Below the pieces are notes generated by a model. The model had not been told where the DNA came from, ran no database searches, and saw only the letters and a list, made by a program, of their open reading frames with translations. A program made the translations under genes and the position numbers. From an uncultured Ectothiorhodospiraceae bacterium (GTDB lineage: Bacteria > Pseudomonadota > Gammaproteobacteria > GCA-002705445 > GCA-002716945), in contig CAYFGJ010000001.1 of assembly GCA_964342835.1 (NCBI GenBank), forward strand, positions 1 to 31,362: a DNA stretch of 31,362 bases, written 5' to 3'. Below, in pieces: positions 13,936-24,212 of this stretch (position 1 is the first letter of the stretch; each line of letters opens with the position of its first letter).

Positions 13936-14610
13936 ATGTGGGAATCAGACGAAAAAAAAATTATTGAAAGTAAGGCAAAAATGATAGATGTTTCATATGC
14001 TATAGAGTGTTCAACTCTACCTTATGATCATGCTTTTGAATTATCTAACGAGATTATAAAAAAACTTCCTTGGTTTTATGATAATAAATTAAATGGAATA
14101 CAAACGCTGCATGGTCCTGACTCTGGAAATGGTTGGACAAGAGCTGAAAATGAAACAATATTTTTATCTAAAAGAACAAAATTAATTATTAGAATTTCAA
14201 AAAATCTGATTGAGAATGCAAAAAATCTAGAAAATGCTGAAATTAATATTGACGGTAATATATTAAAAATAAAAAAATTAACTCTAAAACCATTCTCCAT
14301 CTCAAAAGTTCTTTTTTGTAGATGTGTATTAAGTAATGAAAATATTGATGAAAGTAATTTTTTAAATGCCATTACAGATGAACTAAAAAAACATAAAATT
14401 ATAATAAAAAAAGCACTTTGTGGTAAAAGTAGAACTATAAATTTAGAAGGAAAAAATAATTATACGAGAAGCTTGATGCTAGCTGGTTTATCTAAACAAG
14501 ATTCTATTACATTACAAGATGTAGGTATTGGCAGAGGAAGAGTTTTTGGATGTGGTATTTTTCTTCCATATAAGTCAATTGATGCTGTAGATAATTTTAA
14601 AGACGAATAA
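13936..14610 (+). CDS. cas6: Cas6-like RAMP endoribonuclease (Cmx6 / I-MYXAN-like), orphan
   Basis: N-terminal D..Y.I....LP.DH...L, H...SGNGW, LSKRTKL.IR and C-terminal G-rich loop GIGRGRVFGCG matching GhGxxxxxGhG. Confidence 0.8.
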   Translation: MWESDEKKIIESKAKMIDVSYAIECSTLPYDHAFELSNEIIKKLPWFYDNKLNGIQTLHGPDSGNGWTRAENETIFLSKRTKLIIRISKNLIENAKNLENAEINIDGNILKIKKLTLKPFSISKVLFCRCVLSNENIDESNFLNAITDELKKHKIIIKKALCGKSRTINLEGKNNYTRSLMLAGLSKQDSITLQDVGIGRGRVFGCGIFLPYKSIDAVDNFKDE

Positions 14611-21109: not shown

Positions 21110-21424
21110 TTAAAATTGATTAGGAGGTGAACGTAGTTTAGGTGATATTAAAAAAGTAACAATAGATATGTCTTTATAAGACAAATTTTTTGCAGCAATT
21201 AAATCTAAAGATTCTAGATTTTCTAGATTAAGTTGTGAATCATATGAAAAATAATCTGGTGAAGATTGATAATTTGCATGCCTATCATTTGAATCTGATA
21301 ATTTACACAGATATGAAGTTTCATATGTTTTTATATCATTTGATGCAATAGATAGTAGTGGTAGCAATAAAATAGCCACACTTAAAAATATTGTAAAAAA
21401 ATTATGTATTATTGTATTTTTCAA
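21110..21424 (-). CDS. Putative leader/arrest peptide (CruR/DUF2946-like) upstream of the Cu receptor
   Basis: TTG start with GGGG SD, N-terminal hydrophobic signal segment, C-terminal LRSPP three residues before the stop; directly upstream of the OprC-like gene. Confidence 0.55.
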   Translation of the reverse strand: MKNTIIHNFFTIFLSVAILLLPLLSIASNDIKTYETSYLCKLSDSNDRHANYQSSPDYFSYDSQLNLENLESLDLIAAKNLSYKDISIVTFLISPKLRSPPNQF

Positions 21425-21465
21425 ATTTAACCCCGGTAGGTATTATAAACCAAATATTTATATTT

Positions 21466-21503
21466 AAAAAGTATAGCAGGTTATTTTTTATAACCTGCTA
21501 TAC
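21466..21503 (-). terminator. Intrinsic terminator of the candidate sRNA
   Basis: 14-bp perfect stem GTATAGCAGGTTAT/ATAACCTGCTATAC (21471-21503), 5-nt loop, followed by TTTTT on the minus strand. Confidence 0.88.
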
Positions 21504-21507
21504 AACT

Positions 21508-21534
21508 TCACATCGGAGAATGATGAAAGTTCTT
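21508..21534 (-). repeat. 27-nt direct repeat copy 1 (AAGAACTTTCATCATTCTCCGATGTGA on minus strand)
   Basis: 26/27 identical to 21753-21779, with a 21-nt exact core. Confidence 0.95.
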
Positions 21535-21625
21535 TGCAATATTAACAGGGTCAGACATCCTAGGGAAAGTTACTAGTTCTAATGAAATCTTCATATAAAT
21601 TATGTCAACCTGTCCCTGCATAACT

Positions 21626-21644
21626 GCAAATGAGAATCATTATC
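21626..21644. promoter_or_regulatory. Fur box
   Basis: GCAAATGAGAATCATTATC, 16/19 match to GATAATGATAATCATTATC; overlaps the -10 and start site. Confidence 0.85.
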
Positions 21645-21670
21645 ATATAAGAATTAGCCATGTCTGTCAA
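21642..21670 (-). promoter_or_regulatory. Sigma70 promoter of the candidate sRNA
   Basis: TTGACA (21670-21665)-17 nt-TATGAT (21647-21642). Confidence 0.8.
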
Positions 21671-21704
21671 TAGAATATTAGTAACATTTAGTGTTTTTAT
21701 GATT

Positions 21705-21735
21705 AAAATAATACAGCCAGCAAAAGCTGGCTGTA
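21705..21735 (-). terminator. Intrinsic terminator of the FecA-like receptor gene
   Basis: 10-bp stem TACAGCCAGC/GCTGGCTGTA (21712-21735), 4-nt loop, then TTATTTT on the minus strand. Confidence 0.88.
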
Positions 21736-21752
21736 CTACGTATAACTAACAC

Positions 21753-21779
21753 TCACACCGGAGAATGATGAAAGTTCTT
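21753..21779 (-). repeat. 27-nt direct repeat copy 2, starting in the receptor stop codon and running through the 3' UTR
   Basis: AAGAACTTTCATCATTCTCCGGTGTGA; a single A/G difference from copy 1. Confidence 0.95.
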
Positions 21780-24021
21780 AGAAATCTAATTTAACCCCAG
21801 CCATAAATGTCTGTGGTTTATTAGGCCTTTTGCCATAGTTGTGTTCAGAAGCTACTATAGTTTTATCAAATAAATTATCAATATTGATAAAGCCACGAGC
21901 ATTTCTAACTCCAGCAACTTTGATCGGTAAATTCATACTTGAATGCAAGTCAAATAACCATGCTTTACCAGTTCTGTAAGTATTCTCAGCATTAGTAAAT
22001 GTATCGTCGTGATACTTAGCACCTAATGTTACATCCCAATTTGGAGTTTCAGCTCCTAGAGAAACATACATTTGAAAATCTGGTACATAAGCAATAGATT
22101 TACCCAATTGACGTGGTTCGTCATCTGTATTTGTTTTATATTCAGAACTTTGAAGTATACCACTTACTAGTAATGGGTATTTTATTGACTTCATAGATGA
22201 ATGGCCTTTCATTGTTGGTGCTGCAAAAATATCAGCTAATCTGTATTGGAATTCAACGCCATGAATTTCAGCTTTACCGGCATTGTTTGAATCACCAATA
22301 TTACCAGTACATCCGTTGGCAATTAAACATGATTCTAACAAGTTATCGTAATCTACATAAAATGCAATAAGTTCTATAAAGCTATCAGGCGTGCTCATTC
22401 TGAGCCCTACTTCATAATTATCAGATTCTTCAGGAGTAGCATCTGCTGATGTTCCTGCACCAATAGGTGAATAACCTTGATGATAACCAGCAAATATTTG
22501 TGCTCCACCAGGTATTTGATAAACTGTTGCCGCACTCATCATAGTTTCATCATCATTAACATCCTGTTTTGAGTTACCTGGATTAGCTTCAGTTCCATCA
22601 TTAGACTCAGTATCTTCATATCTTAATCCAAGAGTGGTTGTAAAATTTCCATGTGTGATGATATCTTTGATGTGCCATGATTCAGCATCGGTATCTTTTA
22701 ATTCACCAGCGCCCTCTGTAGCACCTGTTTCTGATTTAAATGTTAAAGTGTTATTAGAATCAAGGCCATATTTACGAATAAAACCACTATCTTGTCTTAA
22801 ACGATAATCTTTATGACGTCTATAACCAATTTCTATATCATGGTTACCCATTTGTTTATTTATTACAAACTGAACACCTGTCATTCCATAATCTCTGTGT
22901 CCCATAGCCATTTCTAGATATTCGTTTGAGTCTGTAGCAGTAGTACCTGTAATAATATTACAAGCTCTAAGTTCATTTCCTGCATCTGCTGCACACGCAC
23001 CTTGCATATCTAGAGCTGATAGTGAAACAGATGAAACTGATCCACTGCCATTACCTTGTGGGTCAACATATACTTTGCCCATCTTACCCCAGAGTCTACT
23101 AAATCTTGTTTTATAAAGTTTAGAAGTAACTCTCATGGTTGATGAAGGTTCCATATAATGTGTAAAAATATAGCGGTGATAATCTGCATCCATTTGATCT
23201 GCTGCCGAAGCGCCATATCTTTGGAATGGATCAGAATGAAATGCTGCAGTTGTTAATCCAATGTATGTTTCATTAGATGTTTCTTCAGTGTTTTGACTTG
23301 ATAATTCAAAATATTGATTCCACTTACTCCCAACTGGTGTATATCTGATTTTAAATAAATCACTTGTTTTATCGAAACCAGTATCACCTGGATTACTTGT
23401 CCCTTTAATACTTTTATAACCGTCGGCACGATAGTCATGTATTTCAAAAACATAACTTATTGATGGTGTAAGTTGTGCACCATAATAAGCATGATTTCTA
23501 TTAAAACCATCATCACCTAAAGTAAAAGAATAATGTCCTTTCGTTCCTTTAGTAGGTACTTGTCGCGATATCCAGTTGATAGTTCCTGCTGTTGTTTTTG
23601 GTCCTGTTCCGACTGCTGCAGGTCCTTTTAGAACTTCAACACCTTCCATACGTCCAGTATCTGGATAAAAATACATGCTAAAGTTGGAATACTGCGCAGG
23701 TCCCTGTAGAACACCATCTTCCATAGTATTAATTTTCTGCGATCTTAATGGATTTACCCCTCTCATTCCAAGATTGGTACGTAGTCCATATCCATCTTCA
23801 GTCTGAGAATACACGCCAGGTATACGAGATAATATTCTCTCTGGATCTGTATAATTGTATTTTTTTATTTCATCATCACCTATAAAGTGTGCTGAACCAG
23901 CTTGTTGTGTCTCATCTTGAGAACCAAATACACTTACTGATCCTAGATCTTCTGCATCAGAAATATTAGTTGTTAATATTAATGCTGCACTTATAGATAA
24001 TAATCTTCCTATAATTTTCAT
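21778..24021 (-). CDS. TonB-dependent iron receptor, FecA-like family
   Basis: IPGVY...EDGYGLR.N.GMRG..P.RS.KI..MEDG, MEGVEVLKGP, terminal Phe; Fur boxes upstream. Start placed at 24021 (SD GAGG) rather than 24033. Confidence 0.85.
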   Translation of the reverse strand: MKIIGRLLSISAALILTTNISDAEDLGSVSVFGSQDETQQAGSAHFIGDDEIKKYNYTDPERILSRIPGVYSQTEDGYGLRTNLGMRGVNPLRSQKINTMEDGVLQGPAQYSNFSMYFYPDTGRMEGVEVLKGPAAVGTGPKTTAGTINWISRQVPTKGTKGHYSFTLGDDGFNRNHAYYGAQLTPSISYVFEIHDYRADGYKSIKGTSNPGDTGFDKTSDLFKIRYTPVGSKWNQYFELSSQNTEETSNETYIGLTTAAFHSDPFQRYGASAADQMDADYHRYIFTHYMEPSSTMRVTSKLYKTRFSRLWGKMGKVYVDPQGNGSGSVSSVSLSALDMQGACAADAGNELRACNIITGTTATDSNEYLEMAMGHRDYGMTGVQFVINKQMGNHDIEIGYRRHKDYRLRQDSGFIRKYGLDSNNTLTFKSETGATEGAGELKDTDAESWHIKDIITHGNFTTTLGLRYEDTESNDGTEANPGNSKQDVNDDETMMSAATVYQIPGGAQIFAGYHQGYSPIGAGTSADATPEESDNYEVGLRMSTPDSFIELIAFYVDYDNLLESCLIANGCTGNIGDSNNAGKAEIHGVEFQYRLADIFAAPTMKGHSSMKSIKYPLLVSGILQSSEYKTNTDDEPRQLGKSIAYVPDFQMYVSLGAETPNWDVTLGAKYHDDTFTNAENTYRTGKAWLFDLHSSMNLPIKVAGVRNARGFINIDNLFDKTIVASEHNYGKRPNKPQTFMAGVKLDF

Positions 24022-24047
24022 ATATAACCTCATTTATATTTTTAAAC

Positions 24048-24066
24048 GCAAATAATTCTCATTATC
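24048..24066. promoter_or_regulatory. Fur box
   Basis: GATAATGAGAATTATTTGC (minus strand), 15/19 match; overlaps the receptor promoter -10. Confidence 0.75.
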
Positions 24067-24091
24067 TTATAGATTCCTGTACAAATGTCAA
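24064..24091 (-). promoter_or_regulatory. Sigma70 promoter of the FecA-like receptor
   Basis: TTGACA (24091-24086)-16 nt-TAAGAT (24069-24064), bracketed by two Fur boxes; same -10/Fur layout as at 21642. Confidence 0.65.
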
Positions 24092-24092
24092 T

Positions 24093-24111
24093 AAAAATGA
24101 GAATCATTATC
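24093..24111. promoter_or_regulatory. Fur box
   Basis: AAAAATGAGAATCATTATC, 16/19 match; lies between the receptor and the divergent exbD-exbD-tonB genes. Confidence 0.82.
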
Positions 24112-24212
24112 ATTTATAGTATTATTTAGCAAATATGAAGAATTTAGATATTTTTGTTATTAGTGATTATTTGATACAATTTTTAAGCTGTTAATAAAGA
24201 AATGGAGAAAAT

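Follow-up and report, generated by a model that had tools for sequence, protein, structure and literature searches.

Two copies of one short sequence stand close together in a locus of a marine bacterium, one of them behind a promoter of its own and the other directly after the stop codon of a TonB-dependent receptor gene. Is the second copy a stray product of duplication, or does the messenger RNA (mRNA) of the receptor carry a regulator? The locus lies in a stretch of 31,362 nt (contig CAYFGJ010000001.1 of assembly GCA_964342835.1; hereafter the window) from an uncultured Ectothiorhodospiraceae bacterium, whose assembly of 0.99 Mb in 118 contigs (28% G+C, 94.7% complete) was obtained from marine metagenomes. 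A preliminary description of the window had noticed a 27-nt block that begins inside the TAA of the receptor gene and resembles the seed of a predicted small RNA (sRNA), and had taken the two for siblings. We find that the copy in the 3' untranslated region (3'UTR) of the receptor mRNA belongs to a hairpin element that follows the orthologous gene in six genera, whereas the stand-alone copy is limited to one. With a probability of about 0.6, we read the element as an anti-Shine-Dalgarno (anti-SD) riboregulator made together with the mRNA of an iron-uptake receptor.

The two copies and the 3'UTR element across the family

The receptor gene and the two predicted RNAs, named copy A (stand-alone) and copy B (3'UTR), occupy the following positions:

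21778–24033, minus strand: TonB-dependent receptor gene of 751 aa (Pfam Plug and TonB_dep_Rec_b-barrel), source of the parent mRNA of the 3'UTR element
21751–21779, minus strand: hairpin H1 of copy B, with leader AAGAAC, 5' arm ACUUUCAUC (21775–21767), loop AUUCUCC (21766–21760) and 3' arm GGUGUGAGU (21759–21751)
21701–21739, minus strand: intrinsic terminator at which the receptor mRNA and the 3'UTR RNA are both predicted to end, with stem 21739–21708 (core 21729–21714) and U-rich tail 21707–21701
21466–21636, minus strand: stand-alone sRNA (copy A), about 170 nt as predicted from fold and terminator

A repeat search of the window returns a direct repeat of 33 nt (21508–21540 and 21753–21785, 30 of 33 positions identical), the copies being 245 nt apart. 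The repeat core reads AAGAACTTTCATCATTCTCCG(A/G)TGTGA on the minus strand, where the copy B string AAGAACTTTCATCATTCTCCGGTGTGA (21779–21753) agrees with the copy A seed (21534–21508) at 26 of 27 nt. Copy B begins with the AA of the receptor TAA stop codon (21780–21778), and the repeat search and the coordinates of the open reading frame (ORF) thus confirm the block as it had been described. No further copies were found with a 21-mer at up to 3 mismatches in the whole 993-kb assembly, and the reversed control gave 0 matches.

Copy B is situated between the stop codon and the intrinsic terminator of the mRNA itself. There is no terminator between the receptor ORF and H1, and the element must therefore be transcribed with the receptor mRNA. 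The RNA species predicted from stop codon to terminator measures about 76–80 nt; the terminator tail reads UUUAAUC, and UAUUAU is among the last stem pairs. The predicted fold of copy A comprises a long 5' hairpin with the apical loop UAACUUUCC, a hairpin H1' (21529–21506, loop AUUCUCC at 21521–21515) and a terminator, which consists of a hairpin at 21503–21471 (minus strand) followed by UUUUU. The order of seed and then terminator that had been proposed for both copies holds, with a hairpin and a U-run 3' of each on the minus strand. The proposed seed is presented in the AUUCUCC loop of a hairpin and not as a free single strand.

The family consists of marine bacteria with genomes of about 1 Mb and dsr sulfur-oxidation genes. 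Its genera are labelled g1 to g6, the genus of the window being g1, in which G000 denotes the genome of the window and G001 a sister species. Orthologues of the receptor are present in 25 of the 37 family genomes, covering all six genera, and a small hairpin H1 is located 0–25 nt 3' of the receptor stop codon in every one of the 24 genomes in which the contig continues. The H1 loop reads (AU)UCUCC, and the element is also present in about 25 marine metagenome contigs; the g2 and g5 variants seem to be the more frequent ones in metagenomes. The hairpin takes the form CUUUCAUC-AUUCUCC-GRUGUGAG in g1, UUUUCAUC-(AU)UCUCC-GGUGgAAAA in g2, UUCAUC-AAUUUCUCC-GAUGAA in g3, (A)UUCAUC-UCUCCC-GAUGA(AU) in g4 and g6, and UUUAUAUC-GUUCUCCGAU-GAUAUGAA in g5; its arms are nearly constant across genera, except for U-A/U.G changes and the replacement in g5. 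A long second hairpin (H2) follows H1 in g2, g4, g5 and g6, and a third one in g5, all with large CU-rich loops. The loops of these later hairpins read ACUUUCACAUCAUUCUCC in g6, which is almost the g1 seed, ACUUUCGAAUAUUCUCC in g4, AACUAUUCUUAAUCUCUCC in g2, and AUUCCCU and UUCCUUAUUUCCCUAUU in g5. In g3, H1 is followed instead by a short stable hairpin, which has CUCC in its loop in two of three genomes.

Within g1, the whole stretch of 390 nt is retained in the sister species (81% identity), where both seeds are preserved and the terminator stems differ in sequence with pairing retained. A third g1 strain, represented by the Tara metagenome contig L202, also has both copies, at a spacing of 246 nt. 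The copies are true duplicates that persist in the sister species and the third strain, and the 3'UTR copy persists in six genera, in agreement with the sibling relationship proposed in the preliminary description; a repeat confined to one genome, which that description had named as the mark of a recent neutral duplication, is contradicted by this persistence in relatives.

We also note the hexamer AAGAAC (two ARN triplets, 21774–21779) directly 5' of H1, which is shared by the two g1 copies, g3 and part of g6 and could serve as a site for the distal face of Hfq or for RNase E. Five metagenome contigs (L159, L163, L181, L184 and L200) represent a further lineage that is absent from the 37 genomes. 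In this lineage, the receptor ends in ...FDF-TAG, H1 does not differ from that of g1/g2, and a different second hairpin has the loop GAUCAUCUCUCC or variants of it.

The element is linked to the receptor gene. In g2, g3, g4 and g6, the H1 pattern gives one match per genome, at the receptor site; an extra match in the g6 genome G006, considered as a second copy, was rejected, as it lies antisense inside the receptor coding sequence. Presence only with the receptor was tested in one genus, g5, where a 21-mer of the element is exact in 8 of 8 genomes with the receptor and absent from 5 of 5 without it, including one that is 98% complete. The 5' neighbour of the element is always the receptor, whereas the 3' neighbour is either exbB or the leader ORF of a copper-type receptor operon. 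Because the receptor is constant upstream and the downstream gene varies, the element belongs to the 3' end of the receptor gene. Outside the order, no instance was found among the 15 matches inspected out of 36 in about 300 genomes, where the pattern has a frequency of about 0.05 per Mb; 14 of the 15 lie fully inside reading frames of at least 94 aa, as in the HtrA-type FIISGDGY motif. The count of 36 includes two matches in the unpublished genome G075, and no claim is based on it.

Comparison of the 3'UTR with synonymous sites further supports strong selection on copy B, as opposed to a neutral duplication specific to one genome. Across the eight g5 species, invariant columns make up 90% of the first 40 in the UTR, whereas over the final 240 nt of the gene 10% of third codon positions are invariant; g2, g3 and g6 show the same direction. 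The loops are invariant while the stems vary. H2 of g5 has 3 compensatory pairs and 0 broken ones. In the g2-type set of 20 distinct sequences (19 metagenome contigs and one genome), compensatory double changes occur in 9 of 19 H2 pairs, and 96.6% of cells are paired as compared with 31–49% when the partners are slid by 1–3 columns; 0–1 of 500 shuffles reach the observed covariation values. Since this set was chosen by the exact H1 pattern, the invariance of H1 in it is uninformative. The many conserved G.U pairs and one-sided changes from G-C to G-U would be A.C mismatches on the other strand, which places the structure on the mRNA-sense (minus) strand. The sense strand folds better by 8–10 kcal/mol in g1 and g5, and U-runs are found 3' of the hairpins on the minus strand only.

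Promoters and the descent of the stand-alone copy

The two transcription units start from the following promoters:

24046–24116, minus strand: receptor promoter, with -35 TTGACA (24091–24086), -10 TAAGAT ending at 24064 and two Fur-box-like sites (24046–24071 and 24093–24111)
21626–21670, minus strand: copy A promoter, with -35 TTGACA (21670–21665), -10 TATGAT (21647–21642, 17-nt spacer) and a Fur box (21626–21644)

The copy A promoter scores 11/12 as a sigma-70 promoter and is the best match of the region; the receptor promoter scores 10/12 and is situated in a divergent region shared with exbD-exbD-tonB. The two best matches of the genome to the Escherichia coli Fur-box consensus are those at 21626 and 24093, and they overlap -10 and -35 elements of the promoters. 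Both transcripts would accordingly be candidates for Fur control. The similar promoter strings that had been pointed out are indeed present, TATGATAATGATTCTCATTTGC at about 21648–21627 and TAAGATAATGAGAATTATTTGC at about 24069–24048 (both minus strand), and the two promoters are 76–83% alike over 29 nt. Because the same Fur box is shared family-wide, common descent of the promoters is inseparable from the constraint of Fur binding. The iron specificity of the receptor rests on the Fur boxes. Its best NCBIfam match is a weak one to a siderophore-receptor subfamily model; it scores below every NCBIfam cut-off, and the earlier label “FecA-like” was too specific.

An internal promoter for copy B at 21881–21854 (10/12) was considered and rejected. 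Promoter-like sites occur at chance level (22 found, 19 expected), and the -10 element of this one is lost in the sister species G001. A separate observation concerns 21655–21725, which holds the copy B terminator and the spacer up to the -35 element of the sRNA. DNA contigs of related strains (runs X2 and X3) align on both sides of this 69-nt stretch and not across it, and the same stretch diverges between G000 and G001, with seeds and promoter conserved.

The stand-alone copy A is present in G000, G001 and the metagenome contig L202, all of g1. No promoter-bearing stand-alone copy was found outside g1 in seed searches or among the Fur-box loci retrieved from the remaining genera; those loci are promoters of the receptor or of exbD, or belong to other genes. 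A maximum-likelihood tree built from 480 aa of the receptor and rooted at its midpoint separates g5 from a well-supported clade, within which g1, (g3,g6) and (g4,g2) form a polytomy. Several losses would be a less parsimonious account than one gain in g1, provided that the tree is not truly rooted on the g1 branch. The earlier idea that one copy arose from the other can be given a direction, which runs against the earlier framing of the 3'UTR block as the second copy: the family-wide 3'UTR copy is probably ancestral, and the genus-specific stand-alone sRNA is probably derived from it. The g1 3'UTR keeps only H1 and a plain terminator, and the stand-alone RNA has the long hairpin and H1'; the CU-rich modules that other genera hold in one 3'UTR are therefore divided in g1 between two transcription units. 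The terminator of copy A in G001 lacks a U-run, being followed by UUGAAAAUCC, and read-through from copy A into the leader ORF and the copper-receptor operon may be substantial in that species.

Proposed function, predicted targets and rival explanations

In the proposed mechanism, low iron would lift Fur repression, and the receptor mRNA would be transcribed together with its 3'UTR element. The element would act in trans, either cut from the mRNA by an activity of the RNase E type or still attached to it, and would bind a set of mRNAs at their ribosome-binding sites and lower their translation, iron-cofactor genes (iscR-iscU, hscB and dsrJ) being the best predicted targets. In g1, the module would have been copied or split off behind a Fur-box promoter of its own, giving rise to the stand-alone sibling sRNA. 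Its intact presence in two transcript contexts in g1 fits a trans-acting unit. Genes for Hfq, RNase E/G, CsrA and two Fur-family proteins are present in the genome. What the comparison establishes is the conservation, structure and strand of the element, its linkage to the receptor and the confinement of copy A to g1; Fur control, trans action, processing, dependence on Hfq and the targets are inferred.

A GGAGA Shine-Dalgarno (SD) sequence followed by AUG can pair with the UCUCC loop and the adjoining CAU of the 5' arm. When the 21-nt seed was scanned against the 1608 putative start regions of the genome, hscB ranked 3rd, an IscR-like Rrf2 gene directly 5' of iscU ranked 5th and dsrJ ranked 10th. 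The predicted iscR pairing joins CGGAGAAUG-gaa-AUGAAA of the mRNA with CUUUCAU/CAUUCUCCG through 9 + 6 bp. For dsrJ, which lies in the window as does dsrA, all 11 positions of ACAUCGGAGAA pair with copy A, and the predicted duplex with copy B includes one G.U. GGAGA and AUGAAA are retained at the iscR start in all genera, and in every genus tested this start region is in the top 0–4% when scored with the cognate H1 seed; with the loop of the second hairpin, it reaches the top 1% in g2 and g6, and not in g3 or g5. We treat hscB, iscR-iscU and dsrJ as leads only. Long targets were not found: besides the two loci themselves, no site of the genome matches the complement of the 22-nt seed at up to 5 mismatches, and long-seed duplex scans gave only loop-ridden, uninformative matches. 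The fur start region has no GGAG, and no pairing was found there.

Several observations weigh against a trans-acting riboregulator. The U-run after copy B is interrupted (UAUUAUUUU), several genera have no clear terminator after the last hairpin, and the seed is partly sequestered in the hairpin stem. H1 stems are nearly invariant and provide little covariation support, so that H1 rests more on conservation. The best target energies are not above those of shuffled seeds, with the count of good hits only about doubled, and cognate seed/iscR pairs (-15.3 kcal/mol) do not differ significantly from non-cognate ones (-14.2 kcal/mol). The latter is expected for an anti-SD seed, which pairs with any strong ribosome-binding site. 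Furthermore, two metatranscriptome runs with the organism, retrieved by a 1-kb search, have no contig over the sRNA or the 3'UTR, a result that does not amount to absence of expression.

For the 346-nt element itself (21455–21800), no RNA runs are listed. The sole contig from an RNA library (runs X17/X18) is 161 nt long and lies over 21277–21434, with 158 nt aligned without differences; it spans the 5' portion of the leader ORF (104 codons) that precedes the copper-type receptor, ends before the sRNA terminator and may reflect DNA carry-over.

Other explanations have to be weighed against the same evidence. The 3'UTR structure could be purely cis-acting, serving the stability or 3' end of the receptor mRNA or the binding of a protein, without pairing to other mRNAs, in which case the stand-alone copy would have arisen as a by-product or would serve the copper-receptor operon downstream as a 5' element. 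Such a role agrees with the strict linkage of the element to the receptor gene, with hairpins that are stable and covarying, with possible read-through into the leader ORF at the G001 copy A terminator and with the fact that trans targets are only predicted. We nevertheless regard it as unlikely, since the invariance of the loops amid varying stems points to sequence-specific loop recognition, and every genus has anti-SD-like loops. In addition, g1 maintains an intact module away from the receptor mRNA, the gene downstream differs from genus to genus, and the SD of the receptor itself (UGAGGU) is not complementary to the loop.

On the plus strand, the loops would read GGAGAAU and resemble the GGA loops of CsrB/RsmZ-type sponges. 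The presence of a CsrA gene and the rough symmetry of the hairpins, whose sense and antisense folds are about equally stable in g2, g4 and g6, would suit a functional RNA on this strand, which we consider highly improbable in view of the A.C mismatches that conserved G.U pairs and one-sided changes become there, and of U-runs confined to the minus strand. The antisense RNA would end inside the receptor coding sequence, no outstanding plus-strand promoter was found, and there is no Rfam CsrB/Rsm match; a CsrA sponge presents multiple GGA loops on the transcribed strand, whereas the loops on the strand of the structure read UCUCC. Selection might instead act on short plus-strand ORFs starting at GGAGAATGATGAAAG (MMKVL..., 9–18 codons), since the repeat there reads as an SD plus ATG ATG AAA. 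The peptides, however, differ after 5 residues and in length, both between the copies and between G000 and G001, the ATG context is lost in other genera and that strand again has no outstanding promoter, so we give this explanation next to no weight. Recent neutral duplication, or chance similarity without function, would readily place two copies only 245 nt apart, as local duplication does, yet conservation at a fixed position in six genera, far above that of synonymous sites, and the retention of both copies in three g1 strains make it exceedingly improbable.

If the anti-SD riboregulator is accepted, a wider reading presents itself, which we hold tentatively and at somewhat less than even odds. 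An old, family-wide 3'UTR riboregulator with several anti-SD loops would form the iron-sparing arm of the Fur response in these streamlined sulfur oxidisers, and one module of it would have acquired a Fur promoter and a terminator in g1 and become an independent gene, marking the birth of an sRNA gene. The g1 genomes would then have two differently wired sources of the same seed. Should the anti-SD riboregulator indeed be directed at Fe-S assembly and at heme or Fe-S sulfur-oxidation genes, it would connect iron supply post-transcriptionally to sulfur oxidation. The locus would then offer a dated natural example of 3'UTRs as a nursery of sRNA genes, with the ancestral form in six genera and the free-standing form in one.

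Three further observations were made in the genome. A second Rrf2/IscR-like domain (G000 contig C3:21894–22334, and also in G001 and G004) lies upstream of iscA-hscB in a 565-aa open frame, which may represent a fusion of IscR and IscS or two in-frame genes with no stop codon separating them. The palindrome ATACCTTACTATTATTATCAGGTAT is conserved just 5' of the ribosome-binding site of the IscR-like gene in g1, g3, g4 and g6 (G000 C29:10846–10900, L080) and looks like an autoregulatory IscR site. At 13936–14610 of the window, an orphan ORF of the Cas6 family (Pfam PF09559, E 4e-50) adjoins a DsrC-like gene.

Comparison with known systems

The window has no Rfam match at the gathering score, and six loci searched at E ≤ 1 gave only three chance-level matches; no sRNA of this clade is described in the literature searched. 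The closest likeness in layout is to kinds of regulators known from other bacteria. Processed (type II) 3'UTR-derived Hfq sRNAs of enterobacteria include CpxQ from cpxP, SdhX from sdh-suc and NarS from narK (PMC9438474). Like these, the element lies directly after a stop codon, shares the terminator of the mRNA and is under the promoter of the parent gene, so that the regulator would report the parent regulon; its seed is better conserved than the surroundings, and genes for RNase E and Hfq are present. In contrast to them, its anti-SD seed is placed in a hairpin loop, most genera have two or three such loops, its processed species is a predicted one and there is no sequence or Rfam relation.

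RyhB acts on iscRSUA. The element and its sibling resemble RyhB (RF00057) and PrrF1/PrrF2 in their Fur-box promoters and in predicted iron-cofactor targets that include the isc system, and they share with PrrF1/PrrF2 the arrangement of two sibling seeds side by side. They differ in that one sibling is embedded in the mRNA of an uptake receptor, in an unrelated seed and architecture and in the lack of an Rfam match.

The loops of CcsR1–4 carry C-rich anti-SD motifs. These RNAs of Rhodobacter sphaeroides are processed by RNase E from the ccaF1 3'UTR (PMC8625941). As in the element described here, several hairpins with CU-rich, anti-SD-like loops are contained in one 3'UTR and co-transcribed with the upstream ORF, although the bacterial class is another one, the stress is oxidative instead of iron-related, the motif is CCUCCUCCC instead of UCUCC and no homology exists.

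A seed shared by a 3'UTR-borne and a free-standing sRNA also has a counterpart, as Chao et al. 2012 reportedly described DapZ with a GcvB-like seed. DapZ is a 3'UTR-borne sRNA of Salmonella (PMC9438474). DapZ is transcribed from a promoter within dapB, and its similarity to the GcvB seed is regarded as convergent, whereas the copies in the window clearly arose by duplication, at a distance of 245 nt, and G001 does not conserve the internal promoter-like site at 21881–21854. Processed 3'UTR-derived sRNAs and Fur-repressed iron-sparing sRNAs are thus both known kinds, and the element after the receptor gene would be a further case.

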